Assembly: GCF_000143415.4 (NCBI RefSeq)
Contig: NW_003314291.1
Location: 1,654,517-1,718,516, forward strand
DNA length: 64,000 bases
Source of the DNA: Selaginella moellendorffii
Lineage: Eukaryota; Plantae; Lycopodiophyta
Direction: 5' to 3'
Shown: positions 13,701 through 42,696 of the stretch, piece by piece
Numbering within the stretch: position 1 is the stretch's first letter
Layout: the number at the start of each line of letters is the position of its first letter
The notes under the pieces: model-generated
Told to the model about the DNA's origin: nothing
The model's database searches: none
What the model saw: only the letters and a program-made list of their open reading frames with translations
Translations under genes and position numbers: made by a program

Positions 13701-13884
13701 AATGTTGTGCATGGTTGGATGCGAAAGCAGAGTGCCACCATCACCTTGCCAGACCATGCAAGAGATGCAGCAAGAGCATTCATAACCCGGGTTCAAGGTG
13801 AGATTCATGAATATTCCTTTACTAAGTTTCTAATGTATTTTATTTCAAGGTGAACAATCCGAATCTGAATCAGAGGAGGCGTGA
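10743..13884 (+). CDS. Sola1-like DDD/E transposase (N-terminal tandem Tnp1/En-Spm-like repeats, CxxC..H motif, C-terminal BAH/Tudor-like domain); in-frame TAG at 13206-13208
   Basis: Motifs KCDEC..H, HDKMDQ, LLLQTDN..ENKN and GFLMVGHTHEDVDAMFS give a D-D-D/E triad. ORFs 10743-13208 and 13233-13853 are in the same frame, separated by one TAG. There is a 5' UTR intron at ~10494-10741 and a last intron at 13798-13849 leading to GEQSESESEEA*. Confidence 0.8.
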
Positions 13885-14524: not shown

Positions 14525-14782
14525 ATGGCAAGCACAAAATCTGTAAGTGAGGCAGAAAAGGAGACGGAGAAGGAGATAGGTGAAGATGTAGAATATATAA
14601 GTCTTCCAAACTCCCCGTACTATACTTCAGGTGATCATTTTTCTGAACAAACGGCAACATTAACAACTATCGAGAACGCCCCAGTAACGTCAGAGACAAC
14701 AATCCAAAGCAAAACAACTGACCCGGAGAAGGATGATAGTACCGCTGAGAGTACCAAAAAGGAGGTGTCCACTAGCGCTTAG
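14525..14782 (+). CDS. Possible small acidic/Thr-rich ORF in the 3' part of the transposon
   Basis: 85-aa ATG-initiated low-complexity ORF, preceded by an acceptor-like TTTTAG and followed by a palindrome unit; no recognisable domain. Confidence 0.25.
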   Translation: MASTKSVSEAEKETEKEIGEDVEYISLPNSPYYTSGDHFSEQTATLTTIENAPVTSETTIQSKTTDPEKDDSTAESTKKEVSTSA

Positions 14783-15418
14783 GCTTATAATGGCGTGTGC
14801 CCTCATGCCATTTACTTGATCACCAAATACCTTTTTCCCTTTGCACTAGTATATCTTAATACCGGTCTGAGAAATAGAATGGCATGTGCCCTCAGGCCTT
14901 TTACTAAATCACCTTTGAAAGAAATGCAAGCCTCTATGTCGTAAAAAAAAGGTACTAGAGAAATTCCTTAATAATATGAATGTTATTTAGTTTCATGAAA
15001 ATACACTAAGGGTCAAATGAGTTAAATGACTTCTCCAGACTAGCAATGCCTTTTGCTACACCTTCACAATTAGATTCGTTAGAAAAAGATAACATTGAAT
15101 AATATCTAAATGTTCTCACCATTAAGTTATATGTCTGGCTAATAGGAATGATGTTCATCTTGGAAAGCTCACCACATGCTCAATGAACAAACAAATAGTG
15201 TGTGCGCGCATGCCATCGCTCTTCTTTAGCTTCAGATTCGGCTTGTTCACCTTGACAATGAGATTTATTATACAACTAGATGGACTCAGTCTGGACATAA
15301 GGTCACCGCGCTAGTCACCATGCCCCAGATATGTCTAGCCCCTGGACAAAAAACATATAATTTCACGTCATTTTCAAATACTTGAAAATTTGTACCTAGT
15401 CCCATTTTACTGAATAAA

Positions 15419-15442
15419 TCCCACTTTAATGAAATAGAGCTT
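15419..15442 (-). repeat. Terminal inverted repeat, copy 1 right end
   Basis: TCCCACTTTAATGAAATAGAGCTT, followed immediately by Gypsy RT sequence. Confidence 0.9.
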
Positions 15443-17741: not shown

Positions 17742-19033
17742 AGTATTAATTTGTGAAGTTGAGCAATAGCATATGTTGGGACCCGAAGGCGCGCCGAAGG
17801 TAAGCTAATTAGCATGGGTTAGCTAGGTCGACTAGGCGTAGGGAACTACGCCCGACTCCCCGCGGGGATGTCGAATCCGTAGACATATTCTATGGAGGTT
17901 GGGTTCGAGTCCCAACCCCCTAGTAAAGCAAGGCTGGGTTCAAGTCCCAACCCCATACTAGGGTGTGGTGGGGTGAGGAGAATAGGGACACCTATATTCT
18001 GTTGTCATGGGCTCTTGGCTAGGGAGGCTAACTTAGGCACACCGCTAAGTGGGGGGATGCCTCTGGAGACATGGTCAACAAGTCGTAGGATTAAAAAGAG
18101 AGACGTTCGATGTGGGCATCGAACTTCTTCTATGGGTGGTGAAGTTGTAAAGAACCAACTCGCCGAGGTGTCGTAGGCTAAAGGATCCCCAAAAGCATGA
18201 CCAAAATGATAAAGAGTTCATCAAATGGGACTGAGTCTGAGATCGAGTCCAAGACCGACTCTGAGACCGAGTTCGAGATAGAGTCCGGAATTGAGTCCGA
18301 GGCCGACTCGGAGACCGAGTTCGAGATGGAGTCCGAGATCCAAAATCGGGTCTGAGACCAAGTCTGAGGTCTAGCCCGAGGTCGGGTCCAAGATCGGGTC
18401 CGAGATTGAGTCCGAGACCGAATCCGAAGTCGGATCCGAGATCGAGTCCGAGATTGAGCCAGAGACTGAGTCCGAGTACTCATATGGGTCAAGGGGTGAA
18501 AGCCCAAAGCGTGCGTCTCCCAAGGGGGTCCAAAAGTATAATAGGGATAGTGAGGTCTAGGAACCAGTTTTGAAGGAACTCTCCAGTGGGGCTTCCAAAC
18601 TGACTTGAAGTTGAGACTGGGACCGAGGGGCCTTGTGTGGGAGTGAGCATGGACTTGGTTGGTGCCGGAGGGGCCATCCAAGGAAGTGCTCAAGAGCAGC
18701 TCCCACTCCCGAAAGGGAAACCGATTGCGGTGCTCCCGACTCATGTGGAGTGGTGCCCCACTTGAGTACCATGCGGCTCATTGGTCCTTGCCCTTCCTAG
18801 GGGCTTGGACCTTCCCTTCGGGATGGAAGTGGGGGGGTAGAGGTACCCATACCAAGCCGTTAGGCCATGGTGTTTCGCCCCGGCGTCCCGAAGCAAGTGT
18901 TGCACCCAAGACTTGGGATTTATAGGGTCCCATGATCAAGTCTTGTGGTACCAAGAGATGTTAGGAACTTGGAAGCTTGGTGTGCTTGGCTGCTTGTGCT
19001 TGCGGGGAGTGTAGCCGAACCTTAAGTCCAGTC
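15443..19033 (+). mobile_element. 5'-truncated Ty3/Gypsy chromovirus (family B): end of RT, RNase H, integrase, chromodomain, part of 3' LTR
   Basis: ETDASDFALGAVL, HEKELFAVV, HHCC zinc finger, MDFITGLP, SDRD, YHPQT, EYEVEAIL..VKWKGF..TWEP; PPT-like tract before the LTR start at 18146; LTR cut at 19033 by family A. Confidence 0.9.
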
Positions 19034-20029
19034 TGTAAGCGACTAATTTTTCCATTCTACTTTAGTCACTTAACCACACCTCCGACCACTTGGAGGAGTC
19101 TCGTTCACAACCTCCATAAGCCCAACTCAGGACTTGGGGCTTGCTAGCCCCGAGAATGGCATCCATGCCACTCAACCTTAGCACTTGGTCCAAGTGCTCC
19201 ACGTGTCCGATCCCATGATCGACACCCCAAGGTACCACCGACGTGTCGGCCCGTTACGCTAAGGCCATGCCCATTTACCTTGGTCACACTGGTGGTTCAA
19301 CACCACCTACATTCCAATCCCATCTCTCAAAGACTGAGTCGTCCGTCCATGAGTGATCATCCCAGATCCAGTCCTTAACATCCTTAGGATGCCTACAGAC
19401 ATGGGGAATAGCCTTCCCCAATATCTCTGTTCCGGTCCCCACCAAGTCCCTTTCTGTCCTTGGCTGTGTTCGCCAACACTGCCACTGGATCAAGGCCCAC
19501 CGGCCCGACCACTAAGTCCCACTATCCTCTAGGACTTCCTCACTGTGTGACTGTGTCCTTGGTTACCACACCAGAGGGCTACCCCTCTTCCTTTCCACAG
19601 TCTGGGACCTTGGGGCACCATTTCGGAACACCGTGGCCTTACGCAAGCCTCATGGGTACTCTCCCCGCCTTTCGTCTTTAGGTGCTCTAGCCATGGGCTT
19701 AGAGCAGGGTTCCGTTGAGCCACACCAGGTATCCAAGTAGGTAGTGCCACCCACACTTGGACTGCGAGCATCGGCCAGTCGATCTCCCGGAGGAACTAGA
19801 GCCGGCTCTTGAACATTTACCAAGCTACCCCGCTTGTCGGTCCGTGTTCACTCTAGTCTTGGACTTCCCAGTGGGCAGCTCATCACCAAACACTGGGTGC
19901 GGCCTTCTGGGGCCAAACTAGCCTTTCCTGGCCAAACTGGCTCCACTGCAGTCCTCCCCCTACTATACTTTTGGAGCTCACCAAACCCCCCAGGGTCTGG
20001 GAGACGAACGCTTTGGGCTTTCACCCTCT

Positions 20030-20450
20030 CAGACTCGGACTCGGACTCGGACTCGGACTCGGACTCGGACTCGGACTCGGACTCGGACTCGGATTCGGAC
20101 TCGGACTCGGACTCGGGCTCGGGCTCGGTCTTGGCCTCGGCCTTGGTCTCGGTCTCGGTCTCGGTCCCGGTCTCGGTCTCGACTTCGGACTCCATCTCGG
20201 GTCCATCTCGGACTCCATCTCGGACTCCATCTCGGGTCCATCTCGGACTCCATCTCGGGTCCATCTCGGACTCCACCACCTCGGGTCCATCTCGGACTCC
20301 ATCTCGGACTCCATCTCGGGTCCATCTCGGACTCCACCTCGGACTCCATCTTGGACTCCATCTCGGGTCCCTCTCGGACTCCATCTCGGGTCCTTCTCGG
20401 ACTCCAGTTCGGACTCCAACTCGGGTCTATCTCGGGTCCATCTCGGACAC
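20030..20450. repeat. 6/12-bp satellite arrays inside LTRs (TCGGAC, TCGGTC, TCGGACTCCATC)
   Basis: Perfect (TCGGAC)n run followed by 12-bp units; similar arrays at 1693-2144, 18230-18480, 41095-41695, 60040-60530 and elsewhere; these explain the spurious repetitive ORFs. Confidence 0.9.
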
Positions 20451-23400
20451 TTCCACGTGTCATGTGTTGGTCCTTTTGGGTCCCTTTTTGGAGCCTCGCT
20501 TATTGCTCGCTTTGTGCTCATTCCTCGAGCACTTCGTTAGGAGTTCCACTCCCGCTCTCGACCTTTCAAGTCGGAGCTTTTGGCCCAAACATGTTACACT
20601 CGTTTGGCTTTCGCTTCGGCCACTACCACGTGGCACCCTTCCGGCTCCACTTTGGGGCCTAGGGATTTTGTGTCTCACAACTCCACCACCCATACACGAA
20701 GTTCGATGTCCTCATCGAATGGTAAACCACTTTATAAAGTAACATCCGCATGTGTTACCATTTCCATCCTTGGCACCTAGCCAATATTTGTCAATGGTTT
20801 GACATTGAAGGCTCACCATGCCTTCTCCATATTTGTCAATGGTTTGACATTGAAGGCTCACCATGCCTTTTGCATATTCCTCAATGGTTTGACACCAAAG
20901 GCTCACCATGCCTTGCCTATCCTCTAAGGAGGGTAGTCTCCCCAACTTAGAGACTGATTGGACCACATGTAGTGGTTCTCGCTAAACCTCTTAGAGACCC
21001 TTCTCTAAGTCAATCCCACTACTCCTTCTCGAGTAGTCTCAATTTCCATCTATTGAACGTTTGCACCTTGGAACTTTTACTCTTTTGACTTTTGGAAGTC
21101 AATTTCCTAGGTGTCTCCAACACCTTGCATTGCACAGATTGTGCAACTCCACTTCCCCATCCTAGGAAGTTCATTACTTGAGGGCACCATCATCCTCTCT
21201 TCTATTTCGTGCCACCTTGGGCACTAAGTTCCATTTATCATACTTTGTGCTAGGGCTGTCCATGGCCCTATCATTTGGCTACCTTACCACTCCCTCACTT
21301 GGAGCTTTTACTTCGCCAAATTGGAACACTTAGGAATCCATCCTTGGAAGTCCACTTCCTTTCCCACAAGCTGTTAGCATCGAACACATTAGTGTTCCTT
21401 GGCTAACTTTGCCATTTGGATCCCTTCCATTAAATTCCATGGCCCAAACTTGGCCACTAGTCCTTTGCTCCTATCCTTGATTGTTGCACCTAGCAACATC
21501 GGATCGCTACCTCCATTTTTGAGGTATCCTTTAGGTTCCATAGCAAAGACTCTTCTTTGCCAAGTCTGGAGGATGTTCACCCCTAGTACGTCTCTTTAGC
21601 ATCTTCTGCTATGGGCTCTATCCACGGCCCAACTTCGTGACCCTCCCATGGGTCTTTTATAGAGACTACTTTCCTCAGACTCACTATGCCATCGCACGGA
21701 CATAGTTTATTTCCCTTATGTGCTCTTCCCACTTGGTCATCACGACCAAGCCACACCATCTTAAACAGTTCAATTTCAACATTTTGAACCAGGAACTTCA
21801 TTCCTTAGCCAACCAAGGACCTTGTCCTTATATGGCCATAAGATCACCTAGTGATCTCACCTTGGCACCTTAACAGAGTTGCCAAGAGGTACTTGGTCTT
21901 CTAGACCTCCAAGTTGTTGAGTATAACCCCGGGGGCATCCCCCACACTTGGTGGTGCACCCAAGCTAGCCCTTACGGCCAAGGGTTCATAGCAACTGAGA
22001 TTAGGTGTCCCCATCTCACTCACCACGACCTTGGTGCCACTTGCACCAAAGCGTTCAAGTTAGATATGCCGAGCTTTCACACTAAGCAATCTAACCGTGC
22101 ATCACGACTCCGAGGCATCCCTCGCTTGGCGGTGTGCCCAAACCAGTTTCCCCACTGAGAGTCCATGACCACCGAAATATGAGTGTCCTCATATTCCAAA
22201 CCATCACCACGCCCTAGTGATTTGGGACTCGAACCCAAGCACTAGAGGGTCGGGACTCGAACCCAACCTCCGTATATGCATCTACGGACGGCATCACCTA
22301 GGATGCCTGGCGTGACTCCCCACACCGGTCCACCAACTTATACTCAAAGCGCGCTATAGATCACAGCTTAGGAACCTAGTTCCTCCCCACTGCCAAGTCC
22401 TCTCACTTGACAAGCCTGTGATCATGCATGGACTCCTCCATGCTTGGCCCCATGGCCCACCCTTTTTGAAGTTATCACCTTCAACTAGGGTATTTGTTCC
22501 CCTGACTTGCCAATCTCGCTTTGGCAAGTCCTTCGACCACTGTAACATGGTTCCTGCACAAGCGTGAAAGCCCTTGATCATCGACTTTCGTTCAAAGCCT
22601 TCTCTTTGAACACTTGGGAACTACTTCCCTAACCTTGATAGCTTGCCTTATGGCAAGCTTCAAGACCACGCTTCTACTGCGCCACTCTAATTTCGCGCGT
22701 TCCTTGAACCATTTATGCTTGGCCTTTCTAGGTACTAAGCTACCTAGAATCCTCTTTGGGAACCTTGAAGGAACTCTGTCCCTTAGCTTGCTAAAGCCCC
22801 CCCTTTCTGCAAGCTTTCCCAATTACCATATAGTCTAACATGGACAGTTCCATATTTTAGACTCTCCATGGCATCACGGTTGCTAGTGGCAACACCCTCG
22901 AGCCCCCACTTGACTCTCCACTCCCAGCTGGCATAACCAACCTTGGTTATGCCCTTCGATTCCTATGGTTCGGTTCTATCCCCTTACTTCTTGCTTTTGG
23001 CTTCACACCTTTCTTTTGGTCATTCTCCTCCAGACCAGGAGGATAGCTTTGCACTTTCTATCATGCCTTAACAAGTATTCTTAGGGATGAACCTACCCGA
23101 TAGCCTAGGGAGTGGTTCCTCAATCCAGGTATGCTCACCCTATAATCCCACACACCGGGATTACGTTGTTGCTTACGGGCCTTTGCATGCCCATCGCTAG
23201 CCTTGCCAAAATTCCACTTTTGGCTTTGTCCAATTCGAGTAGACAGTCTTCTCCTGTCTCTGCCACCTTGGACATTTGGATAGCACCTACTATCCATCAT
23301 TCGCTAGGGACTTAGTCCCTTGGGCCTTATCTACTGCCCTCGCGACATCCAACACCACCTCCTGGTGTTCTAGAGTGTTCGGGTGTCCTAATAACGGCTT

Positions 23401-24807
23401 CCTTGACAATGAGTATTTCCTTTTACGACATTGACTTACTATATCGCAACATAAACAACTTATCCCTCGTAAGGGTATATCTAACTTCCTTATGCCATTA
23501 AGAAGTCTTGGGTAGTTACCTTCTACCCATTTAACCAATTATCTTGCACCTCTTGCTTAGTTGCCTCATAGTTGTCAAGTCCTACAACTCATTGCTTGGT
23601 GCTTCCTCACCTCCATCATTATCTGGGTCACCACACTCCAACTGCATGCTCTGCAGCTTAGGCTATGCCATTCCCTTTTCCATTGGGATTCCTTTGGCAA
23701 GGGGTTCTCATGAACCCACCAACATAGCCTCAATGTATCACACCTTGGCACATTTGGTGTCTCCACACCATCGGCTCCACAAGCCTACCTCTATGACACT
23801 TCTTCTTTGTGTCTAAGTCTTTGCCAAGACCAATACCACTCTTTCTCATGCCAACCATCTGTTAGCATTGCATCATAGAGGTCACACACAATTTTGTGTC
23901 AAAGTTGTTTTTTTTTTTTTTTTTTGGGAACACCTTTCCCACGACTTTAGCATGGCATATTTTGCCATCGATGAGATACCCTCTGTTCTCATCCTTGGAT
24001 CCTATGATCCCCCCCCATCCTTTGTGGGGTACAACACACCTCAGTCCAAATGCTTCCATCAGTCCTTTTAGGACCATCCCTTGACTCTACTTGAGTCATC
24101 CAGCAGTTTTGGACTTGGTTAATCCACAGACCCGTAAGGTCCTACTTGTGAGGCACTAGCTCACTGGAATACACTTCTTGCATTCCTGTCCTACTCAAAA
24201 GGACTATTTTCACAAGTGTTACTCTGACACTTGATTTTGTTCTCTGGGGGCAACCTTTGCCCCTTAGGACTACTTGTCCATGTGATGAGAATACCAACTC
24301 ATCCACTTAATACACCCCCAACTCCTTGGGTTGTTCCAGCATTTATTAGAGGTAGCCCCGGCTACCATTTCGAGGACTCGTGTCCTCATCCATACTTGAC
24401 CTCTCACGGTCATCCATTCCGGTCTCACCTTCATGAGCACCAGCTTCAACTATGTGAGGATAAACTTGTGACTCCTTTATTGTTTTTGGAGTCTCTATCT
24501 TTCCCGTGATCCCAACTATAGTTGTTTACCACAACTACCTTAGCCAATTTGCTGAGACAAATGCTCATCCAGATCACATCCTCAACTCAATGAGGAAAAC
24601 CTTGCATTGTTCCCAAGATCCCAAAGTCATTCCATTATTGGCCCTTTTCTATCCACCACCTCGTCTACAAGTTCACACATGAACTGTAATGGAGAGCTAT
24701 GTCTTCCCGACTTGCTACTCCTCAAGGATAGGCCCACTCCTCAGACCTTCCGATGCCAACACTAGTGGTGATATACTTGAGCACCAATAAAAGTCGGACT
24801 AAGGAAC

Positions 24808-24820
24808 AGCTCTGATACCA
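24808..24820 (-). other. Primer binding site complementary to tRNA-iMet 3' end
   Basis: Minus strand TGGTATCAGAGCT, 3 nt from the LTR end. Confidence 0.9.
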
Positions 24821-26460
24821 AGTTGTAAGCGACTAATTTTTCCATTTCACTTAACCACACCTCCGACCACTTGGAGGAGTCTCGTTCACAACCTCCATAA
24901 GCCCAACTCAGGACTTGGGGCTTGCTAGCCCCGAGAATGGCATCCATGCCACTCAACCTTAGCACTTGGTCCAAGTGCTCCACGTGTCCGATCCCATGAT
25001 CGACACCCCAAGGTACCACCGACGTGTCGGCCCGTTACGCTAAGGCCATGCCCATTTACCTTGGTCACACTGGTGGTTCAACACCACCTACATTCCAATC
25101 CCATCTCTCAAAGACTGAGTCGTCCGTCCATGAGTGATCATCCCAGATCCAGTCCTTAACATCCTTAGGATGCCTACAGACATGGGGAATAGCCTTCCCC
25201 AATATCTCTGTTCCGGTCCCCACCAAGTCCCTTTCTGTCCTTGGCTGTGTTCGCCAACACTGCCACTGGATCAAGGCCCACCGGCCCGACCACTAAGTCC
25301 CACTATCCTCTAGGACTTCCTCACTGTGTGACTGTGTCCTTGGTTACCACACCAGAGGGCTACCCCTCTTCCTTTCCACAGTCTGGGACCTTGGGGCACC
25401 ATTTCGGAACACCGTGGCCTTACGCAAGCCTCATAGGTACTCTCCCCGCCTTTCGTCTTTAGGTGCTCTAGCCATGGGCTTAGAGCAGGGTTCCGTTGAG
25501 CCACACCAGGTATCCAAGTAGGTAGTGCCACCCACACTTGGACTGGGAGCATCGGCCAGTCGATCTCCCGGGGGAACTAGAGCCGGCTCTTGAACACTTC
25601 ACCAAGCTACCCCGCTTGTCGGTCCGTGTTCACTCTAGTCTTGGACTTCCCAGTGGGCAGCTCATCACCCAACACTGGGTGCGGCCTTCCTGGGCCAAAC
25701 TGGCCTTTCCTGGCCAAACTGGCTCCACTATGCTCTATTTTGTTAAAGTGGGATTTATTCAGTAAAATGGGACTAGGTACAAATTTTCAAGTATTTGAAA
25801 ATGACGTGAAATTATATGTTTTTTGTCCAGGGGCTAGACATATCTGGGGCATGGTGACTAGCGCGGTGACTTTATGTCCAGACTGAGTCCATCTGGTTGT
25901 ATAATAAATCTCATTGTCAAGGTGAACAAGCCGAATCTGAAGCTAAAGAAGAGCGATGGCATGCGCGCACACACTATTTGTTTGTTCATTGAGCGTGTGG
26001 TGAGCTTTCCAAGATGAACGTCATTCCTATTAGCCAGACATATAACTTAATGGTGAGAACATTTAGATATTATTCAATGTTATCTTTTTCTAACGAATCT
26101 AATTGTGAAGGTGTAGCAAGAGGAATTGCTAGTCTGGAGAAGTCATTTAACTCATTTGACCCTTAGTGTATTTTCATGAAACTAAATAACATTCATATTA
26201 TTAAGGAATTTCTCTAGTACCTTTTTTTTACGACATAGAGGCTTGCATTTCTTTCAAAGGTGATTTAGTAAAAGGCCTGAGGGCACATGCCATTCTATTT
26301 CTCAAACCGGTATTAAGATATACTAGTGCAAAGGGAAAAAGGTATTTGGTGATCAAGTAAATGGCATGAGGGCACACGCCATTATAAGCCTAAGCGCTAG
26401 TGGACACCTCCTTTTTGGTACTCTCAGCGGTACTATCATCCTTCTCCGGGTCAGTTGTTT

Positions 26461-29400
26461 TGCTCTTGCTGCATCTTTTGCATGGTCTGGCAAGGTGATG
26501 GTGGCACTCTGCTTCCGAATCCAACCATGCACAACATTATCCACCGATATGCTCATGCTGGGATCCCTTGGATTCAGCACCCATCTCTTTTCTAGGCAAT
26601 CGTTCGTATATCCGGAACTTGGCTTGAACCACTCCACAGTTACATTGAAGGAGTTAGTTTCCGCGTCCTCCTCTGCATCAGTGATGCAGCGCCCCACCCA
26701 TATCATTTGTTTTTTATTACTGGGTCTGACAAGCACGACCATTCCTTTGCAGACCTGTACTGGATTGAATGCTGAATCCGGCTTCTTGTTCCTCGGCCCA
26801 CAATAGTGATCCTCAACATCGTTATCTGTCACTGCATTTCCAGAGGACATTGTTCCGCTACTATCTGGTGCTCTGGGTTCTGGCCAAAAGGACTCTTCCA
26901 ATTCTTTATATACAACCGGCCCATTTTGGATAGCAGATATAATCTTCTCCCAGTATTCGAGCAAAGGCTTGCACCTCTGAAAATAGGATTCTCCACCAAA
27001 CACCAACCCCCTCTTCCAGAAGGCAATATGCTATCTAATCCCGGCCACTATACTTTCCTAGTCTTTGAGTCCATCCGGGTGCATCGGCCGTGGGGAACCC
27101 TGAGAAATCATAGGTTCCCCAGTTATGGGATCTCTCTTGAAGAGTTCAATGCCGTCCACTGGCAGCCACACTGTGTCCCATTCTCTCATCTTGTACCTCA
27201 TCACTGGAGCACCGTCACGCATGCTGAAATGAAACTGAAGAGGCTTGGAGTGGCCAATCAGCGTTTCGGATCCGTCCCTGATGTAGCCTCTTACAAACCC
27301 CTTAAAGTCTGGAACCTCTGTCAGAAGTGCAGCTTCAACAGTGCCTTTGATGCAATTTTGGAATTCATCGTAGAGTTGTGGGAGGGTGAGGACATTAGAT
27401 CGCCGGAGGGACTCTGCCAGGTGACTGAACATGGCATCGACGTCTTCATGAGTGTGCCCAACCATGAGAAAGCCAAGTGTAACCGTTTCAAATATGCCTT
27501 TGGCAACAAGCATCGCCAAGTACGCGAAGACGTACATGTTTTTGTTCTCACTGCCAGCATTGTCTGTTTGGAGCAGAAGATGGGGTGGAAGGCCACATCG
27601 GCCGCAAGAACTTCCTTGAGATTCTGCTTCGTTTGGATGAGGCTGTGCATTCACCGGGCGACCAGCCTCGTCGGAATGGCATGAGGCCTCACGTGATAAC
27701 CCTACAATCTGACGGCCAACATATTCACTGGGATGGCATGGGGCCCCACGCGATACTGCAAGCCTTTGCTCCTCCTCCAGCTGAACCCTGTATGGGGTTC
27801 GATCGACAAGGGCCTTATGCAAGGGTTGGCCGTTCAGCTCAGTTTGCGCACTTTGCAGAGACCTTAAGTGTTTTGCTAGGGACGCAATCATCATGTTTGC
27901 ACCCCCGCCACCCCATAGAGGTACAAAGAAGTTCCCATAGTTCTGGGCACCATGCCCATGAGCGATTATGCCAAACAGAGACACAGGCAGCTGCATGGAT
28001 GAAGAGATTGCCTTGGGGGTAGGATTGAGTCGAGGTAAGCACGTCTTTTTCTGGTCCATTTTGTCGTGGATGATGCAGAGGTAAGAGTCAGGTCTCTCCA
28101 TGGAGAGAATCCTGTTATGATAATATGCAGTCCTGCAGCTTCTCTGCTCGATGTTGTGGTCGAGCCGCCTTCTAACCAACGTCTCTCGCTCTTGAGCGCT
28201 GCAAGAATTCTTCGACAAAGCCATTTTGATAGCAGTGCACTCGTCACACTTTGAAAAGCTGGAGTACTTTCCTATACTCACATCCCTGAACCTGTTGCTC
28301 CACAATCTACTAAATCTAGATTGGCTCAGCTTCCTGTAGCCATTACTCTGGAGTTCCCGATTCACATCTTCCAATATGGCCCCCTTGGTATACATGGAAG
28401 GGAGAACTCGTTGGGTGTCTCGTGTTCCATCTTCCAAGAGGCGGCTTTTATGTGGTTGCTGCTCGCTACATGTCTCGACAAACCTCTTGAAGATTGCCTC
28501 TCCATATACAACATGACCCCTGGTTTTGTGCGTACCGTCGTTCCCATGGACTGCCTGTTGAACCCTTTGTTCCTCGAACTCAGTTTTGATTCTATAGAAT
28601 GTGGTTCGAGGGACTCCATAAATGATTCTCCATGCCTTCATGCAGACCAAACCCCTCTGGAAGACCATGCCCCCCACCTGATGTTCTGAAGCATCAACAG
28701 ATGACCGTAATGCCTCATACACAAAATTGCGAGCTGCCTTCCAGGACAATGTCTTGTATCTTGCTCTCTCCTCTTCAATAGCATCCCAATCAGCATGTTG
28801 ACAGCACCTCCTCTTGCAACAAGCAATTGTCGAGACCATTCGAACCTCCATCGCCATTTTTTGCCTTTTCGGTTCGTTGCTCAGATCCCTTTGGCTGCGC
28901 TTTAGGAAGGTGTACTTTCTTTTCCCATGAAGAGATGTTCTGTCATCAGTTGTAGTGGTGTTTGATTGTGAATCCTTCACATTCTCAAACACTAAGTGCC
29001 TCAATTTCCACCGCACAATGCTTCCAATAGTCAGACTGTTTTCTTCTGTGTCAACAACCTCTAAAATCGCAACTCCAATATCATCCCAGCCCAATTCTTG
29101 ATTAGCAACCGCATCTCTTGGATCGACAACTGTGGCTAAGCCCTCAGCTACCACCTCCCCCTCGGGGTTGTTTAGAAACACCTTTGCCTGAATCCTTGTA
29201 GCACGGTTCTTAAGATCCACGGAGGGAACATGCGTCGCACTTGCGCTGTCCCCAACATCTGCTTTCTTCTGAAGATTTTTCAAGGCAACAACAACATTTA
29301 CCCCGACGACCATCTCTCCTCGTTCAATAGCGACCACATTCCCATCGAAGACAGTTTCTACTGATACAGCAGCATTGCCTTCCCCAAGCCTTTGACAGTG

Positions 29401-29496
29401 TATAACAAAGTTCCGATCCATAGACACAAGGGTCCCTTTTGCAACTCTCTTCCCACCATTCAAAATGTAAACCTTTTCCCCAACCCTGAAGGCCAT
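26461..29496 (-). pseudogene. Transposase of copy 2: shared TAG (27031-27033), an additional TAG (27058-27060), and the 3' end deleted
   Basis: 812-aa ORF near-identical to 10743-13208; continues in frame into ORF 26353-27006; deletion junction at ~26461. Confidence 0.8.
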
Positions 29497-32400
29497 TCTG
29501 AAAGTGCAGAAAAGAAGTTAAGACCATACAAAAAATGATTGGAGAATGGCCTAAATCATAACATACCAAACAACCTCAATAGCATGAGGCCACATGCCAT
29601 TATTCAAACATGCTATTGACACCCACGTGAAATTTCGCATTCACAAAATTGGCATGAGGCCTCATGCCATCTTGATATACACACAGCTGCAGGCAAGTAA
29701 AAACATACATGACAATACGCTAGCCATGAAATTGCAAGGGCCCAAGATGGCATGTGGCCTCATGCCATTTCTAAATGTGGTCCTAAGCCATTCCATGGTG
29801 AACATACCAGGAAGCACAAGTGCCGAATATCAAGAGGAAGCGGTAGCCACACCAAAGACAGTGCCGCTCGCAACACCGCAACTGCTCGTAGCGCCGCTCG
29901 CAACACCGCAACTGCTCGTAGCGCCGCTCGCACAAACTGCCACTCGCATAAACTGCCGCTCGCAATGGCGCTCGCAATGCCGCAACCGCTTGTAGACGCA
30001 TAAACCACAGCTCACAACGCCGCTTACACAAGCAGCGCTCACTGCGCTCAGCGGAACCAAGAACACGGCGCACAAAAATGATAGACCTAGGAATGAGTTC
30101 GAGAATTCAAAAATAACACACGCTTGAACGTCACATCAAATCCTCTGACAAACCAGATCTTATGATTCCTCTGACAAATTTCAAACTGAGTAGCTTCTAG
30201 ACTTTGCTGTCGGAGGTTGAACTTTGTCACATCATGTCCTTGCCTCGATCCAGCTGTGCCATGTCAGTGATTCGAACTTTGCCATGCCATGTCAGCGATC
30301 CGCGCCAAGATTATTCGCCGTGTAAAGGAATAATTATGCTGTGTGTGTACGTCCATTTATGGCAATATAATGCCACATGCCATTCAAAGAATAATGCTCG
30401 ACATAAGGCCACACGCCATTCAAAGAATAATGCTAGTCGAGCATTTTTTGGTGCATTTTTGGGTTCAAAATTGCATGAGCCCACACGCTATAAAGTTTAC
30501 CTGTACCAAAAATAGAAACAGCTTTATTTACTTGGGAATTTAAGTGGTTGAGGCATTTTTAAACTTACAAACACATGCCCTACTTACATTCCTTTGGTTG
30601 CTTAAAATTCAAAAATATTATAAACCTTTCTTTTTGCATTTTCAATGTTTTCAATTATGGTTTTTGATTTTCGTAGGACCAGCCTAGTAATCTATTTGCA
30701 TCCCGTGATGTTTATAGCTAGCTTTCGTTTGTCCCCTTCGCTAGCCTGAGATACATCTGCTCGGCATCTGCCTCTTACAGCATTTGCCCAGAAAGGGCAT
30801 CTTTCTTCACGCAGCATTTGCCACATGTTTAGGGTTTAGGGTTTAGCAATTTAGTAGCTTGATAAACATGCAAATACAGAACTTGATGCAAAATCCTTTG
30901 ATATGTCACAATGCCCCTAGGACCATAAACACATTTCAATAGAGAGGGTCCTTTCATTTCATAACTCCTTACGTAGATCTTGGTGAAACCAGAGTTAGTG
31001 AAGTTAGTTTCTTGTGATCCCGCATCTGATTGTGATGTCCCTTTGCAGTGTCGATGGAAAGGTCAATGCACACCAAACTGTAAAATCTTGGAGCAAAATA
31101 ACGGTCGGATCTATGGCAAATGCCCCTGAAACATTGTAAGGCTCATGTGGTCTCATGTGGTGTCCGATCGAGATGCTTCTTTGCAGGGTCATCAAGAAAG
31201 ACATTGTATACCATTCTGTAAAATCTAGTTGCGATCTAACGGTTGGATCTCCAGAAAACTCAAAAAAATCTCGCGCGTGTCAGAATATCCTAGGAATATA
31301 CTCCTATGTGCCCCTGAAAATGGCATGCGGCCCCACGCCATTCAAGAGATAATGCCAGATGACGCCGAGAATTTTTTGGTGCATTTCTTGGGTTCAAAAT
31401 TGCATGAGCCCACACGCTATAAAGTTTATATTTGCCAAATAGAGAAAAGTTTATCTGTGTCATGTGAGGTAGTTACAGTCCTTTGTGCTTGGCATCTGCC
31501 TCTTGCAGCATTTGCACTGAAAGGGAATTTTTCTCCATTCAGCATTTGGCCCTGAAAATGGCATGCGCCCACACGCCATTGAAGGAATAACGCCACAGGA
31601 CGCCTGGATTTTTGGGTTTAAAATGTTTAGGGTTTTTCGGGTTTTTTCAAAATATTTTGGGTCCAACGTTTTTTGGGTTTCTTTGGTTCAAAATTGCATG
31701 AGCCCACACGCTATAATATTGATTTAAGAGAAAAATAGAAACAGATAGAATTTCTTTATTTAGCTGAACATCTGCCATTTTTGGAAATACAAGATGCTTT
31801 GGAATATCCAATCATGCATGGTATAAATATAGCGAGGGTATTAAATGATATCCCAATCATGATCTTTCTTTTGGATTTCGCGTGCATGCAATCCGAGGAA
31901 TGATGACGTTGCGGATTTCTTTTGGATTTTGCGTGCTTGCATGCGCGCGGCAATCCAGAAATTAATGGTGGCGCCCAAGTCCGAGGAATGATGACGTGGC
32001 GGGATTACCAACCGTTGTGACATTTCGCGCGTGTGAGGTTAGGTTTTGCATTTTGCTTTGTACTCGCGCTCGCACACTCGCGCTCGCGCTCCCGCTCGCA
32101 TCGCGCTCCCACTCGCGATCACGCTCACTTCTCTACAGGTTTCTCGTGTGCATCGGCGTCCACTCGCGCTTGCATCACACTCGCGCTCGTGTGCATCGGC
32201 GTCCACTTCAAGACACACCCAGTTTGTAACTTCGCCGCCAACTCCGCCGCCCACTCCGCCACCCACACGCAGCCCACTTGGCGTCCCGGGAGATTTCAGC
32301 GCCACTCTCCAACTGTAAGTGGCAGAGTAGCCTTGCTGCTACGATCCGCTGGCATGAGGCCACATGCCATTCAGTAGCAACATTGGCATGCACCGATTGG

Positions 32401-32643
32401 GCTCTCGAGTGCAGTCCGGTTACAGATGGCGTGTAGCCTCACGCCATCTTAGGATGCAGCCTCAAGACATCTGACGCGGTGGTGAATGGCGTGTGGCCTC
32501 ACGTTATTTCCAGCTGCTAGCTTTTCATCTGTCAGCTCTAATTGTTGTGCATTTCTGAACAGGCGAGGAATTGCGTTCTTCTTCCAGCCACTGTCAATGT
32601 GGATGCAGAGAAGGGGGAGGAGCTCACCAGTTGGACTTTCGGG

Positions 32644-35600
32644 ATGGAAGGCGAGGATCTGATGCTGTACAGCACAGATGGTGGGAGAAAAGAATGCATG
32701 GGGATCCTCATCCAAGTGACAGACACTCCATGCAGTTCCATGCAAGAATATGGACTGGCACTTGTGGTAGAGACAGCGTCCGCCTTCAAGATCCACCTTG
32801 CACATCCTAGCGGCTTCCCGGAGGGGGGTAGCGGCTATGAGGAATTCCTAGAGGGAGCTAGGGAGAGGTTGTCCAGGAGGCCCACAATTTCAAAGACGCT
32901 GCGGGTCTATGAAGATCACATGGAATCCACAGACCTCACCTACGGCGATGTTCAAAAACTATATTCCAACATTGAGCCGTTGAGAGTGCCTCCAGTTTGC
33001 GAAGCGAAGGGGAAGGGGGTCGATCTGGAAACTACCCCGAAGCAGAAAAGGGTGGTCAAGCTCAAGCCGACGTCCGACTCTCCTGCTCCAAAAAAGAAGC
33101 TACTCGGTGATGCCATTGCCTCGGGTTCAAACACTACACCCACCAAAAAGAAGAGCCGCAAAGAGCAGAAAGAGCAAGAAGAGGCAGCAAAAATCGTCGC
33201 AGATAATAGTACTTGTTACTATTCCAACAAAGTATATACAATCGACGTGAGCCGTATCGACATCCAAAGCAAATACAACCACAGGCTAGTATCTGATGAG
33301 TGGGTGGAGAAACTGAAGCAGAAGATGCTGGCAAGTCCAGTAACACCCGACATCGCACCTTACAGAACCTTACCGGGTATATGTGAATTCGGATGAGGAT
33401 CAAAGGTGGAGGAGCATCGTTTCCCGCGGAGATGAGCAGGTCAAGAACATCTTTTGTGTGATGGACTTCACAAACGAGGAGATCACTCATGCAGACGAAG
33501 TCAGCTCCATCATTGACTTAATGGTGGGACTTGCGGAGGTGGAATCTTCAGTCCACTATATGATCTACGACTCCAAATCCTATCACAAGTTCTGGAAGGC
33601 CTTGAACGAGGTGAAGGCTCGGTTGAAAGGCAAGGAGATGCGGGAGATCCATGGGATAATGGCTAAGAAAAAGATACCGACGAATGTCCGCATCTTCACA
33701 GTCGCCCTTGTTATTGGTCCTGCAGCAGAGTGGGACTGGAGTGACTTCCCAGCTTCGTTCAACAAAGCCGATCGAATTGATCTGAGGGAGGTCAATTTAC
33801 CCGTGCCTGAGGAACTGAAGACGGCTATGGAGCTTTCGAATCCAAAGAAAGCTCCAGGTGCAGCATGGGAAATGCTCAGCTGGGTCTTCAACGCAATAGC
33901 GGGTGACTCCAAGGGCAAATGCGTTGTCGAGTACAACTGCGGCGGACTATTCTTTCGAGCCGCACTACTCAAGGGTGTCCCGTGTGTTGCGGTGACAAAC
34001 TCCATTGAAGAAGTGACTTCAATGGAGCATATAATTACAGTTGCCAAAGAAAAACAGTATCTTCTCTACGAACCTGGTGAGTACGCACTTTAAGTTTAAA
34101 TGTTATCTCACAAGCTCTGTATGCAGGAGCGTGGCCACCCCCAGATGCTGAAACGGCGTTAACAGCTACTGATGTTAGGCCGAGGTCACAACCTGCACAA
34201 GGTAAGGTCACGTGAGGCCTCACGCCATTTTGATTATAGATCGTTGTGAATATTCAGACACGAGGACTGAAAAGCGCACTGGTGGCGCGTCAAAGAAGGA
34301 CAAACAGACAAGCAATAGGAAAAAAGGAGGTACAAATTATATTTGCAATGGCGTGTGGTCTCATGCCATTCCTTGCAGGAGACACTTCTTCAAAGGCAAA
34401 ACAGGCAAGCACCAGCCAAGCTCAAACTGACAGTGGTCATAAAAAGCGAAAGCACGTTGGACAGTCGTCGGGATCAGAGGCGTTTGATTCGAAAAGGAAG
34501 AAGGGTAACGAAAAGATGATAAGTAATGCCTCGCGGTTATGGCGTGTGTGCTCATGCCATTCATTACAGATCAAGGGCTGAGTGAAAGGAGCCAGTCACC
34601 ACCTTCTGACTCAGATTCCTATGGCAGACTCCCCTTCCCCAATCTCAATGGAGAGGTACAATGGATGAGGGATGCTTTTCAAGTCAGGGCCACGTTTTTC
34701 TCATCTCGTCGTCTTCGAAGGGTGCAAGAACGTGCAGAAACCATGTTAAGACAGTCGGGTGAGGATACGGTCCTAGGTCACGCACTAAAACAGGCTATGG
34801 ATGTCTTGTATTTTGAGATGGAGACTCGGCCAGATGATTTTTCCAAGATGGTCCTGGAAAAACAAGCAATCCAGCCTGAGCAGCCTATGGAAGAAATGCA
34901 AGAGGGGGATGAGGAGCCAGAGAAAGATAATGAGCAGGAAGAGCAGAAGGACGAAGAGGAGAACAAAGAAGAGGAGGACGAAGAAGAGGAGGATGAAGAA
35001 GAGGAGGACGAAGAGGACTTGGATGGTCCTCACAATGGTGACGATCACAATAACGACGATGACGATGATGACGACGATGGCCAGCCTGAGGTGGCCAAAG
35101 AGCAGCGGAGGAAGGTCATACAAGACAAACCATCAGGTAAATAATAGTACATCCATTCCTAACCTTTTACCATTTCGAACATTGTCCATGTAGGTCGCAG
35201 AAGAAATGGTAAGTAGAGATTATTCAGTTGAATTAAGATACAAACTCTAGCCTTTAGTGTCGAGGAAGGATAGTGCCAAGCAAGGGTCGAAACGTATGTC
35301 CAATCCTTCAGAATCAGCAGTGCGCCCAAGTGATATCGGTCCTAGTTCCTCAATAGCAGTTGATGGTAAATACAGTATAGTTGATTCAATGTGCTAATGA
35401 GTTTGTTTTTAGTAGCTACAAGGGAGGATACCATCTCAATCGAAGGGAGATATTTGGACATGCATATGGATCCGCCAGTGGACTCTACTTGCCTGCAAGA
35501 GTCATCAGAGCTGGTGGAGGCTACTATCCATATCAACGCCAAGCAAGCTGACCACGCTCCACTTGATGCTGCCCATACCACTGAGTCAATCTTGTCCACG

Positions 35601-36901
35601 TATCCAACTGACGGTGACCAGGCGCCATTGGACCTGCATGAGGCCGCCCCAGCCGCCGAGCCGGTCGTATCCTCATTTCCAACATGTGCCCAATCGTCTG
35701 ACTACGCGCCGTTGGAACCTCCCTACACCGCCCCTGCTGCCTGTTCGGTCATGTCCACTTTGCCAACGGAGGCACCAGCTGAAATGGCGTGTGATCACAC
35801 GCCATCGGAACCACCCCATGCCACTGTTGAGCCAGTTGTACCAGAGTCTACAGCTGAAATGGCATGTGCCCACACGCCATCGGATGCGATTGACCCCACA
35901 TTGCAGAGGAGAGTATTTCCGCCCTTCACGTTTCCTCGACCAAAACCCTCTGAACGACCATCGGGAGCACCATTCGCTAATATTGTAGATGGTAAAATTG
36001 ACTTGTACCATTTTTTATGCTAACGCATTTCATTTCAGAGTCACGGCAAAAGTACTGTATCGTTTTTTATCTGAACGGTGTCCTTTTCTCCCATGAGCGT
36101 GGCTCGTCCTCGAATGTCACTGCACCCTCCAAAGCCTGCGGTCGCAAGTTGGTCAAAAGAGACAGATTCACATTAATCACACGGGAGAAACTGCGGGATC
36201 TAATAATGACCATGCGACACTTAAAACAGAGGGCCGGGTTCAATTTGCAATTGGGAGTTTGGAAATCCATGATGTGCCACAATGCATTAACGTTGCTACA
36301 GATGATGCACGATCAGACGCGAGTAATATTACCATTTGACTTTCTCCTAACGCAGGAGGATTGCTTGACTATGGTCCATGTGAGGGGTAGCAAGCCCATC
36401 TTCGTCAAGGCAGAGGCTGTAGTGATGAACCGGACTGCTAGGTCAAGTGAAATCCTCATCATCGATGACTCGCCGATTAAAACTGCAGCGAATACGCACA
36501 CATATGCAGTGCACCCCATCTCTTGCAGTATGGAAACTAGGGAGAAGAAACCGTATGTTCTGGGGGACCTTGCAAAACGGCTTGAAGCGATGGTGATAGA
36601 GAACCGGCCAGTCCAGGAGGTGGCTGCAGAAATCAACCAAATGGCAGATGGAACTGTATATCAGAAGCCATTTGATCGGACAGACACCAGTCATCATTTA
36701 TGGCATGTATATTGTCTAGCCAAGCACTATCCGCATCTCCATAATCTGCTCAACCGGATGGGTTCTTCGACCACTGAACATGAGCGTGGACGTATTAGAG
36801 AAGAGATGGCATTACTATTGGGTTTAAATCCTGATAGTGTGGAGAGTGATGAAATTCCAAGATTATTGTATAGGCGTTGGAGGCAAAAAATAACAGTTTG
36901 A
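32644..36901 (+). pseudogene. Spliced cargo gene, copy 2: ParB core deleted; HAD exon open but motif I D>Y
   Basis: GT-AG introns at 34077-34126, 34202-34257, 34330-34378, 34505-34569, 35137-35193, 35209-35257, 35366-35412 and 35992-36038 are all phase 1 and give a stop-free reading frame; there is a frameshifting deletion at ~33357. Confidence 0.75.
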
Positions 36902-38722
36902 GATGGCATGTATTTATTTAAAAATGTAACTTATTATGGCATGGGGTTCCATGCCATTGTATTAATATTAAAAGACAATTCTTTGAGAGGATTTGCATTA
37001 TACTAGAAGTGTTACAGCATGTTATTGGAAGTCTACGAAGTTGTTTTATTAATAAGGGGAAAGTAAAGATTGAATGGGGACTTGGGCTCCACCTAGACTC
37101 GGAGCAACTGAGCCAATATTAAAAGGATGGAAAGAAATTGGACGACGATGACAAGGAGAAGAGAGAGGTGAAGCAGTGGCAGGGGGAGGAGAAGTGATTG
37201 AGTAGACATTTCCTTGTTTAAAATAAAATGGCATGTGCCTCAATGCAGTTGAATTTTGTTATATTTATATACTATATAAAGGTTTGGAAACCTTATTTTA
37301 CAAGTGGGATAATGACAATTCCCACTTTAACGAAATAGAGTTTTATGGGGGATAAATTGTTTATGTTGCGATATAGGGAGTCAATGTCAAAGAAGGAAAT
37401 GCTCATTATCAAGGAGACCATCATTGAGACACCTAAACACTCTGGAACACCAGGAAGTGGTGTTTAGTGTCACAAGGGCAATAGATAAGGCCCAAGGGAC
37501 TAAGTCCCTAGCAAATGATGGATAGGAGATGCCTTCCAAACGTCCAAGGTTGTAGAGACAAGAGGAATCCGTCTACCCGATTTGGACAAAGCCAAAAATG
37601 GGATTTTGGCAAGGCTAGTGATGGGCATATGGAGCCCATAAGTAGCAATGGTAATCCTGGAGTGTGGGATTATAAGGCGAGCATGCCCAAATTGAGGAAC
37701 CACTCCCTAAGCTATCGGTTAGGTTCATCCCTATGAATACTTGCTAAGGCATGATAAAATGTGCAAAGCTATCCTGCTAGTCTGGAGGAGAATAACTAAA
37801 GGAAACATATGAGGCCAAAAGGCAAGTAGTATTGGGATGGAACTGAACCATAGAAATTGAAAGGCATAACCAACGGTGATTATACAAGTTGGGAGTGGAG
37901 AATCAAGAGGGTGCTCGAGGATGTTGTTACTAGCAACCGCGATGATATGGAGAGTCTAAAATGTGGAATTATCCATGTTGGACCATATGGTGAGTAGGGA
38001 GTTTGCAAAGGAGAAGCCTTAGCAAGCTAAGGAACAGAGTTCCTTGAAGGTTCCCAAAGACAATTCTAGGTAAATAAGTACCTACCTTGAGCATGCGAAA
38101 TCAGAGTGGCGCAGCAGAAGCGTGGTCTTGAAGCTGGCTATGAGGCGAGGCTATCAAGGTTGGGGAAGTAGTTCCCGAGTGTTCAAAAAGAGGGCTTTGA
38201 ACAAAAGTCGATGGGTAAGGATTTTCATGCTTATGCATGAACTATGTTACAGTGGCCGGATGACTTACTAAGTGAGATTGGCGAGTCAGGGGAACAAATC
38301 CCTTAGTTGAAGGTGCTAACTTCAAAAGGGGTGGCCCATGGGGCCGAGCATGGAGGAGTCCATGCATGATCACAGACTTGTCAAGCGAGAGGACTTGGCA
38401 GTGTGGAGAAACTAGGTTCCTAAGCTGTGATCTATAGCGCTCTTTAAGTATAAGTTGGTGCACCAGCGTGGGGAGTCACGCTAGGCATTTTTTGCAATGC
38501 CATCCATAGATGCATATACGGAGGTTGGGTTTGAGTCCCAACCTTCTAGTGCTTGGGTTCGAGTCCTAAATCACTAGGGCATGGTGTTGGTTTGGAATAT
38601 GAGGACACTCATTTTTCGATGGTCATGGACTCTCAGTGAGGAGATTGGTTTGGGCACACCGCCAAGCGAGGTATGCCTCGGAGTCATGATGCACGGTTAG
38701 ATTGCTTAGTGTGGCTTGGCAT

Positions 38723-41587: not shown

Positions 41588-42696
41588 TCGGGACCGAGAC
41601 CGAGACCGAGGCCGAGGCCGAGACCGAGCCCGAGCCCGAGTCCGAGTCCGAGTCCGAGTCCGAGTCCGAGTCCGAGTCCGAGTCCGAGTCCGGAGCCTGA
41701 GAGGGTGAAAGCCCAAAGCGTTCGTCTCCCAAACCCTGGGGGGTTTGGTGAGCTCCAAAAGTATAGTAGGGGGAGGACTGCAGTGGAGCCAGTTTGGCCA
41801 GGAAAGGCCAGTTTGGCCCAGGAAGGCCGGACCCAGTGTTGGGTGATGAGCTGCCCACTGGGAAGTCCAAGACTAGAGTGAACACAGACCGACAAGCGGG
41901 GTAGCTTGGTGAAGTGTTCAAGAGCCGGCTTTAGTTCCCCCGGGAGATCGACTGGCCGATGCTCCCAGTCCAAGTGTGGGTGGCACTACCTACTTGGATA
42001 CCTGGTGTGGCTCAACGGAACCTCACTCTAAGCCCATGGCTAGAGCACCTAAAGGCGAAAGGTGGGGAGAGTACCCATGAGGCTTGCCTAAGGCCACGGT
42101 GTTCCGAAATGTTGTCCCAAAGGCCCAGACTGTGGAAAGGAAGAGGAGCAGTCCTCTGGGGTAGTGACCAAGGACACAGTCGTGTGGTGAGGAAGTCCCA
42201 GAGGACCGTGGGACTTAGTGGTCGGGCCTGTGGGTCTCGATCCAGTGGCAGTGTTGGCAAACACGGCCAGGGGCAGAAAGGGACTTAGTGGGGACTGACA
42301 GAGGGATATTGGGGAAGGCTATTCCCCTTGTCGGTGGGCATCCTAAGGATGCTAAGGAGTGGATCTGAGATGACCACTCACGGATGGTTTGCCTAGTCTT
42401 GGAGAGCCAAGACGGTGATGCAAGTGGTATTGGACTACCAGTGTGGCAAAGGTGATTGGGCATGGCCTTAGCGTAACGGGCTGCGATGTCGGTGGTACCT
42501 TTGAGTGTCGGTCATGGGATTGGACACGTGGTGCACTTGGACCAAGTGCAAATGTTGAGTGGCATGGATGCCATTCTCGGGGCTAGCAAGTCCCAAGTCC
42601 TGGATTGGACTTATGGAAGTTGTGAATGAGACTCCTCCAAGTGGTCAGAGGTGTGGTTAAGTGACTAAAGTAGAATGGAAAATTTAGTCGCTTACA
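40865..42696 (+). mobile_element. Solo LTR, family A
   Basis: TGTGAGACAC...GTCGCTTACA with TSD GCTAT on both sides; contains (GATGGAGTCCGA)n and (CCGAGA/CCGAGT)n arrays. Confidence 0.9.

Follow-up and report, generated by a model that had tools for sequence, protein, structure and literature searches.

Comparison with known systems

In Ectocarpus, the Sola1 transposon Sola1-1_Ec32 carries, opposite its transposase, a gene for a 1,104-amino acid (aa) protein with ParB and N4C/N6A methylase domains, in a 21.5-kb element bounded by 282-bp terminal inverted repeats (TIRs) (PMC12477816). The parts of that paper covered here propose that this accessory protein binds and modifies its own element, and cite Iyer et al. 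2011 for green-algal cases. Here, we analyzed a 64,000-nucleotide (nt) stretch of the Selaginella moellendorffii genome (contig NW_003314291.1, positions 1,654,517 to 1,718,516, forward strand), called the window below and numbered from its first letter. It contains two copies of a Sola1-like DNA transposon, whose cargo gene likely encodes, as judged from the sequence, one spliced protein of 1,609 aa with ParB-like, methylase-like and phosphatase-like parts. By sequence features and analogy, this protein has, in our view, about an even chance of being a self-targeting, likely non-catalytic, anti-silencing activator of its own element.

The Selaginella element resembles Sola1-1_Ec32 in the 4-bp target duplication, the AA..TT termini, an accessory gene and a transposase that lie on opposite strands, and the ParB-like plus methylase domains. 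The differences, compared by published description only, are that no phosphatase domain is reported in the parts covered for Sola1-1_Ec32, whereas the present protein has 1,609 aa, an acidic tract followed by a NIF domain, and a degenerate methylase motif IV, in an element with 24-bp TIRs. A ParB-methylase cargo in a Sola1 element was already in print (PMC12477816, as far as covered), which the first-pass annotation had missed. Iyer et al. 2016 catalogue eukaryotic adenine methylases with a ParB fusion, and this cargo family does not appear in the parts of that work covered. In our literature search, neither a ParB-methylase-NIF fusion nor a ParB-methylase cargo in land plants turned up. The general design of a ParB-methylase cargo is already published in algae.

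Another ParB-like cargo, PAG3, is described for the Plavaka elements of Bostrychia, and the inverted repeats beside it are its proposed binding sites (bioRxiv 10.1101/2025.02.11.637652). The Plavaka accessory genes PAG2 and PAG3 resemble the Selaginella cargo in that a ParB-like protein is carried by a transposon next to inverted repeats. According to the parts of that source covered, Plavaka belongs to the EnSpm superfamily, its ParB is fused to a 2-oxoglutarate oxygenase, the methylase-SET gene is separate, and the repeats lie in tandem arrays, whereas those of the Selaginella element are dispersed.

VANC of VANDAL (PMC5735166) and TnpA of Spm (bioRxiv 10.64898/2026.08.24.746577) are accessory proteins with family-specific motifs in the non-coding parts of their own elements. 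As far as these sources were covered, they have no domain in common with the cargo protein, their motifs are short and non-palindromic, and their activity was demonstrated, whereas that of the cargo is predicted. The VANC domains DUF1985 and DUF287, which belong to a MuDR element, were absent from our Pfam results; the comparison with VANC concerns the way of working only.

Structure of the cargo gene

The first-pass annotation had proposed that separate open reading frames (ORFs) join into one stop-free frame through eight GT-AG introns and a 54-nt intron. This was borne out: the copy-2 exons, together with the copy-1 exons at 7620-6523 and 6468-5160, gave 1,609 aa with zero internal stops. 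The spliced copy-2 pieces gave 1,051 aa without a stop. The 859-aa ORF was located at 5143-7722 on the minus strand of copy 1, whereas the copy-2 ORFs (284, 249, 205, 212 and 299 aa, stop to stop) were a few residues off the 201, 210 and 294 aa given before. The number of eight GT-AG introns also stood, whereas their lengths were 47-57 nt and not 47-65 nt.

Exon 1 is complete in copy 1 (6523-7620, minus strand), where it encodes aa 1-366, including the whole ParB/Srx-fold domain (about aa 190-350, with NHRL and SGQHS). In copy 2 (32644-33357, plus strand), it encodes the N-terminal region, a basic linker and the start of the ParB domain, and is cut by a 1,034-bp deletion. The in-frame 54-nt intron (6469-6522, minus strand) is of phase 0 with GT..AG ends, and contains one of the palindromes described below (site at 6480). 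Exon 2 of copy 1 (5160-6468, minus strand) encodes aa 367-802, a helical region followed by a predicted beta-class amino-methylase fold. The methylase-fold part is retained in copy 2 at 33364-34076 (plus strand), and the deletion puts exon 1 in another frame. The region 34077-36038 (plus strand) comprises the eight introns and seven exons of 75, 72, 144, 567, 15, 108 and 579 nt, which encode a low-complexity linker and an acidic tract. The introns, all GT..AG and of phase 1, lie at 34077-34126, 34202-34257, 34330-34378, 34523-34569, 35137-35193, 35209-35257, 35366-35412 and 35992-36038 (plus strand). Their GC content is 0.37, as against 0.50 in the exons, and retention of each would lead to a stop. 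The last exon of copy 2 (36039-36901, plus strand) encodes a NIF/FCP1-type HAD domain with YLNGVL and IIDDSPIK. In the last exon of copy 1 (504-1366, minus strand), HAD motif I reads DLNGVL and a stop occurs at 1050. The motifs attributed before to 32644-36901 in copy 2 are thus only partly found there: FYAVSGQHS is deleted and YLNGVL and GVWKS are present, whereas DLNGVL and GVWTS are in copy 1.

Stop-free chaining by the same rules succeeded in none of 200 Markov shuffles, each tried in three start frames, and in none of 3 opposite-strand frames; this shuffle null is lenient because shuffling destroys long ORFs. Introns arising by chance were rejected on this basis. The junctions are not unique, since 16 of the 32 acceptor combinations tried remain open and a seven-intron path also exists. 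In the alignment with the fern homologue P0064, a 15-residue gap spans the 18 codons of the 54-nt intron, and many homologue ORFs stop where this intron sits. An unspliced contig of sequencing run X3 differed from copy 2 by five indels in the predicted coding sequence, all multiples of 3 (15, 12, 15, 1+2 and 9). The genomic-looking contig of this run contains the 1,034 bp missing from copy 2. The indels in run X1 upstream of the cargo start were 26, 17 and 11, none of which is in frame. The possibility of separate genes was rejected, since the fusion is kept in the fern. The stop-free intron model, the fern fusion and the in-frame indels support the earlier proposal, and the sequence is likely that of one spliced transposon cargo gene of 1,609 aa.

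Homologues of the cargo protein

A HMMER search over 1.84 billion representatives gave 17 matches, of which 15 were kept; P0033 and P0039 were dropped as repeat-driven chance matches. The named relatives are P0030 from Selaginella moellendorffii and proteins from Adiantum nelumboides. Fern P0064 (1,246 aa, in a cluster of 20) shows the full order of ParB-like, helical, methylase-like and NIF parts, at 22% identity to the window ORF over 391 columns (E 1e-17). Its linker is short, without the long acidic tract. Since P0064 has the full domain order, the fusion is old and not a splicing artefact. Invariant residues and the domain order persist across families at about 20-29% identity.

The P0030 cluster has four members, annotated genes of host-like appearance in which only the helical and methylase-like parts are present; they may be domesticated or truncated cargo.

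Searches with the window protein itself (Pfam for the cargo, PDB sequences, NCBIfam and phage tblastn) were uninformative, and in PHROGs the best ParB-like match had E 0.22. A word-based search yielded no homologue among 7,997 candidates. Pattern scans for the ParB part in viral, metagenome and prokaryotic contigs found no relative, hence no direct prokaryotic donor was seen. Marchantia or rotifer N4-methylcytosine methylases were rejected as direct relatives, since only the fold is common.

The ParB-like part

The ParB/Srx similarity noted in the first-pass annotation was supported by structure searches. With the model of the ParB part (predicted local distance difference test, pLDDT, 77.7), Foldseek gave Noc (E 1.4e-4), ParB and PadC as the top rows. 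The VIA search gave PadC (Z 9.9, root-mean-square deviation, rmsd, 2.9 over 100 residues) and KorB (Z 9.3), and all of the top 9 rows have the ParB/Srx fold. Atlas features of the fern homologue led to DUF3723 and ParB_N. These models argue strongly that the N-terminal part of the cargo protein has a ParB/Srx fold.

In ParB, Noc, KorB and VirB clamps (10.1101/2025.10.10.680097; PMC10676424), too, a helical region comes after an N-terminal domain of the ParB fold; these clamps use palindromic sites, and VirB is an anti-silencer. ParB proteins read inverted repeats. The cargo differs from these clamps, as described there, in lacking the Arg of the GxxR motif and ParA, and in its eukaryotic fusion. 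The position of Box II GxxR reads GQHS in 11, GQHT in 1 and GLHS in 2 of the 14 rows, where the cargo Gly is assigned to Box II from the fold and the motif shape; the Arg position is Ser or Thr in 14/14. In the tested ParB folds that the covered sources describe, the Box II Arg is required for nucleoside triphosphate (NTP) binding. An ordinary ParB NTPase, as implied before, is thus weakened. Elsewhere in the ParB part, a Gly, a His, a pair of Arg and an Asn do not vary, so that non-canonical ligand binding is conceivable. The region after the ParB fold is helical with high model confidence, and by its position it would be a helix-turn-helix (HTH) of the ParB type. A homodimer model made without an alignment scored 0.02, against a mark of 0.32.

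The methylase-like part

The VIA search with the exon-2 model gave M1.HpyAVI, TTHA0409 and M.MboIIA as the top three, and 8 of the 11 top rows were beta-class N6A/N4C methylases. The methylase rows had Z values of 7.9-9.3 over 153-169 residues (best Z 9.3, rmsd 3.8 over 153), which are near the background of the tool. The Atlas model of the Selaginella homologue P0030 had a TM of about 0.7 to N6_N4_Mtase models, several of them ParB fusions, including phage ones. The order of the motifs is permuted, with motif IV (MDFTN, aa 598) before motif I (VEYNCGG, aa 753). The degenerate amino-methyltransferase fold claimed from the letters alone is thus moderately supported: the C-terminal part of exon 2 is predicted, with moderate confidence, to have a beta-class amino-methylase fold.

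This part resembles beta-class methyltransferases (M1.HpyAVI, M.MboIIA, CcrM and N4CMT; PF01555) in its predicted fold and permuted order. It differs from them in that DPPY/SPPY is replaced, and the window protein has no Pfam match to a methylase at the sequence level. According to the parts of the literature covered, DPPY/SPPY is the active site, and PPY positions the target base. Instead of (D/S/N)PP(Y/F/W), motif IV reads DFTN, DLRR, DSAN, DAAH/DAEH or DATT; in the 11 rows with letters, which come from about five independent families (one fragment row is gapped), only the D is kept. Motif I varies as EYNCGG, EYGCGG, DINTGG and DVFACG, and a motif-I-like loop was found in 8/8 rows that reach it. 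The earlier view that the methylase is probably inactive holds family-wide, since PPY is missing in 11/11 rows. The loss of canonical residues is common to families at about 20-29% identity, which argues against decay of the window copy as its cause.

The linker and the phosphatase-like part

The acidic tract in the linker has 47 Asp or Glu in 85 aa. The NIF/FCP1-type domain after it, which had also been recognized in the first pass, was supported by Pfam matches in fern homologues (E 1e-15 to 1e-16; 1e-16 for the fern homologue compared), whereas the window's own piece had E 0.028, below the Pfam cut-off. The last exon matched fern P0064 with E 6e-6. From the Pfam matches in fern proteins and this pairwise similarity, the HAD domain would be of the NIF/FCP1 type (PF03031).

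The likeness to FCP1/SCP extends to the first Asp, the Thr/Ser of motif II and the DD, all of which the HAD domain retains. In the parts of the literature covered, DxDx(T/V) is the signature of the FCP1/SCP family. Here, in place of it, the motif is DLNGV in copy 1 and DLNGL in the fern, so that the second Asp is Asn. Because this is so in both the window and the fern protein, an active phosphatase for Pol II's C-terminal domain (CTD), as suggested before, is weakened. The second Asp of the signature is the general acid/base, and an Asn there can trap a phospho-substrate.

A family-specific palindrome

The first-pass annotation overlooked the transposon setting and a 22-bp palindrome. In the window, all 72 occurrences of the half-site ATGGCRTG fall in the 25 kb of the element, and none in the 39 kb outside. 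The full site, ATGGCRTG-N6-CAYGCCAT with at most three mismatches, was found 51 times, and 51/51 are inside the element. A pattern scan gave 23 dispersed full sites in copy 2 (25956-37249), as against 0-2 in 30 shuffles. Eleven of them occupy the stretch that separates the genes and 5 are subterminal; cargo introns contain 3, one cargo exon 2 and the transposase another 2. Four of the nine cargo introns carry the palindrome. A family-specific motif enriched in the non-coding parts of the element, a trait of the VANC type, was thus present. The palindrome is unlike the 24-bp TIR.

The two palindromes in the cargo exon (35784-35880) are translated as MACDHTP and MACAHTP.

Among 80 loci with related transposases, those of at least 2.4 kb were scanned for palindromes. 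Loci L026, L028 and L039 each had their own palindrome, in 8-11 exact copies; there were 5-6 copies in L002, L010, L025 and L027, whereas five shuffles of each locus gave at most 2; L080 had 5 copies, in a tandem repeat. Most other scanned loci, many of them decayed, showed no palindrome. The palindromes of the related loci are all different and 20-28 bp long. Half-sites differ even within a group of four loci with 87-92% identity between their transposase cores.

In L025, L026, L027, L028, L030, L039, L010, L002 and L003, the family-specific palindrome often forms tandem arrays upstream of the transposase.

Structure of the element and its copies

Self-BLAST and comparison of the ends defined copy 2 at 25730-37343, an 11.6-kb Sola1-like TIR DNA transposon with two internal deletions. 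Copy 1 (62-15442, by self-BLAST) is inverted relative to it, and has a solo-long terminal repeat (LTR) insertion and two N gaps. Shared blocks of the two copies are 98-99.8% identical. The ends are 24-bp TIRs that start with AAGCTCTATTTC. Comparison with empty LTR sites at 19900-19980 and 41750-41830, where AGTG is single, revealed a 4-bp target duplication at the element ends: AGTG at the cargo end of copy 1 (58-61, plus strand) and its partner CACT at the transposase end of copy 2 (25726-25729). For the remaining two ends, the LTR sites of the window included no matching empty site common to both. TIRs and a 4-bp target duplication, the latter as in Sola1-1_Ec32, are traits of Sola1. Since the AGTG/CACT pair is split between the copies, the DNA of about 10 kb between them was likely inverted by recombination.

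The cargo gene and the transposase are arranged head-to-head and divergently in one element. The region between them (29497-32643), with a divergent promoter and 5′ untranslated region, contains 11 of the 23 copy-2 palindromes. The transposase of copy 1 (10743-13853, plus strand) is a DDD transposase with DUF7869 (E 1e-42) and a premature stop at 13206-13208. That of copy 2 (about 26461-29496, minus strand, by sequence comparison) has the same stop, one further stop and a 3′ deletion. The motifs of the transposase are DKMD, DN..NK and GHTHED, which we take to be of the Sola1 type. The label "Sola1-like" is based on the 4-bp duplication, the AA..TT termini and these motifs, and not on an alignment to any named Sola1 reference. 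Relatives of the transposase are 29-48% identical, apart from one near-identical record, and a tree of 30 rows, with long branches and no named Sola reference, leaves the subfamily unfixed. The transposase has two N-terminal repeats that are Transposase_23-like (E 0.028; 10743-11300); its C-terminal beta-rich part (13450-13780) presumably resembles a chromatin-reader fold, as judged by eye.

Neither copy in the window is intact. In copy 2, the cargo gene has the 1,034-bp deletion with its frameshift, and Tyr replaces the first HAD Asp. In copy 1, the cargo gene is broken by the solo-LTR-like insertion (1462-3305, plus strand, by self-BLAST; TG..CA ends and a 5-bp duplication, GGGTT), in addition to the stop at 1050 in the last exon. 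The premature stop of the transposase is at one shared codon in both copies. Contigs of runs X1 and X3 are without this stop, and intact element copies therefore likely exist. The window copies would likely rely on such copies elsewhere.

The window is otherwise plant-like repeat DNA with Gypsy/chromovirus fragments. Regions 15443-25729 and 37343-64000 contain nested Gypsy/chromovirus fragments (gag, reverse transcriptase, RNase H, integrase and chromodomain), and LTRs with internal tandem repeats.

RNA reads

Three raw RNA runs were analyzed, to about 12% each. The matches were mostly partial reads from other abundant RNAs, with almost no true element reads; three reads were derived from a diverged element copy. 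The contigs of run X1, in which intron sequence is retained, may be DNA.

The 5′ region of the cargo includes 40 nt (32312-32351 and 7913-7952) that also occur in a very abundant RNA and attracted hundreds of partial reads; the contig of this RNA had a depth of 1,598. The stretch provides a donor-like GTAAGT site. We take it to resemble the 3′ part of large rRNA; Rfam gave no match here or in the rest of copy 2.

Possible function of the cargo protein

In the reading that we hold at even chances, a dimer of the cargo protein would read the palindrome: the ParB fold and the helical, HTH-like part would bind the 22-bp site of their own element in introns and near the divergent promoters. The methylase fold, the acidic tract and the HAD domain with its DxN motif would bind or recruit chromatin and the phosphorylated transcription machinery, or would block host factors. 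The outcome would be a sequence-specific activation that keeps the element transcribed against host silencing, without DNA modification. By analogy, the net effect may resemble that of the plant proteins VANC and TnpA and of VirB, a bacterial anti-silencer of the ParB family. The position of the palindromes between genes and in introns gives a layout like that of the VANC targets in non-coding regions (PMC5735166, as far as covered), and the different half-sites among transposases of 87-92% identity fit a fast-evolving reader. The observed/expected CpG ratio of the element is 0.70, as against 0.52-0.55 in the flanks, which is weak support, since the youth of the element alone could account for it.

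A more specific proposal, which we regard as doubtful, is that of a triple pseudo-enzyme that Sola1 elements of land plants derived from a phage-type ParB-methylase. A nucleotide-independent ParB dimer would load on the family-specific, parS-like palindrome, the dead methylase fold would grip or shield target bases, and the DxN HAD domain would hold the phosphorylated Pol II CTD rather than dephosphorylate it; the whole would be a programmable, self-specific activator against silencing, with an evolution independent of VANC and TnpA.

Several observations weigh against a self-targeting activator. The exon-2 model had a pLDDT of 61.7, which is high in the helical part and low (about 45-60) in the methylase part, and Foldseek found nothing under E 0.001 with this model. 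With the Box II Arg absent, a VirB-like cytidine triphosphate clamp is doubtful. No spliced read was found at any predicted junction in the portion of the RNA runs analyzed. Locus L027 contains an apparently whole 7-kb Sola-like element (1782-8904) with long imperfect TIRs and its own palindrome upstream of the transposase; it has six palindromes and no cargo ORF inside, so that palindromes need no cargo in cis. Cargo remnants were detected only in L038 among the 80 related loci, most contigs being too short to judge. These remnants (L038, 1595-2799; a decayed ParB-like part, E 0.12, and a helical part, E 1e-8) share the strand of a decayed transposase, about 7 kb upstream of it. Finally, a transposase can be enough to activate its own copies, as described in the parts covered of bioRxiv 10.64898/2026.08.24.746577.

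The last points lead to the main alternative, possible although somewhat unlikely, that the transposase binds the palindromes for synapsis or self-activation and the cargo acts via the transposase, chromatin or target choice. The palindromes of L027 without cargo agree with this, as do the extra Transposase_23-like parts and the sequence-specific activation by transposases reported in the same preprint, as far as covered. In addition, the palindromes of L025, L027, L028 and L030 have a common degenerate core that one transposase could read. However, only 5 of the 23 sites are subterminal, most being between genes and in introns, and the palindrome does not resemble the TIR. Half-sites differ between near-identical transposases, and L027 could be served in trans.

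It is improbable that the cargo is an active writer, which binds the palindromes and methylates (N4C/N6A) or dephosphorylates with non-canonical sites. Such active writing was proposed in print for the Ectocarpus protein (PMC12477816, in the parts covered), and the motif IV Asp (11/11 rows), the motif-I-like loop (8/8 rows) and the remaining HAD residues (the first Asp, Thr/Ser and DD) are kept. Nevertheless, every family has unrelated residues where PPY would stand, and both lineages checked carry Asn in place of the second Asp of DxDx(T/V). Very unlikely is a decaying captured relic without function for the element. Both window copies are broken, no expression was seen in the portion of the RNA runs analyzed, and the 3 synonymous and 4 non-synonymous differences of exon 1 between the copies are not enough to show selection. 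However, further copies present in sequenced DNA hold the frame with only in-frame coding indels, and invariant residues and domain order are kept across the families.

Significance for transposon silencing

The escape of transposons from host silencing has been worked out for few plant systems (VANC and TnpA). A ParB-methylase cargo of algae was previously proposed as another escape route. The Selaginella element offers a defined 22-bp candidate site and a protein model, with which self-marking by methylation may be separated from self-binding alone. If the methylase is dead, self-marking by methylation would be excluded. The NIF fusion kept in the fern would link such cargo to the transcription machinery.

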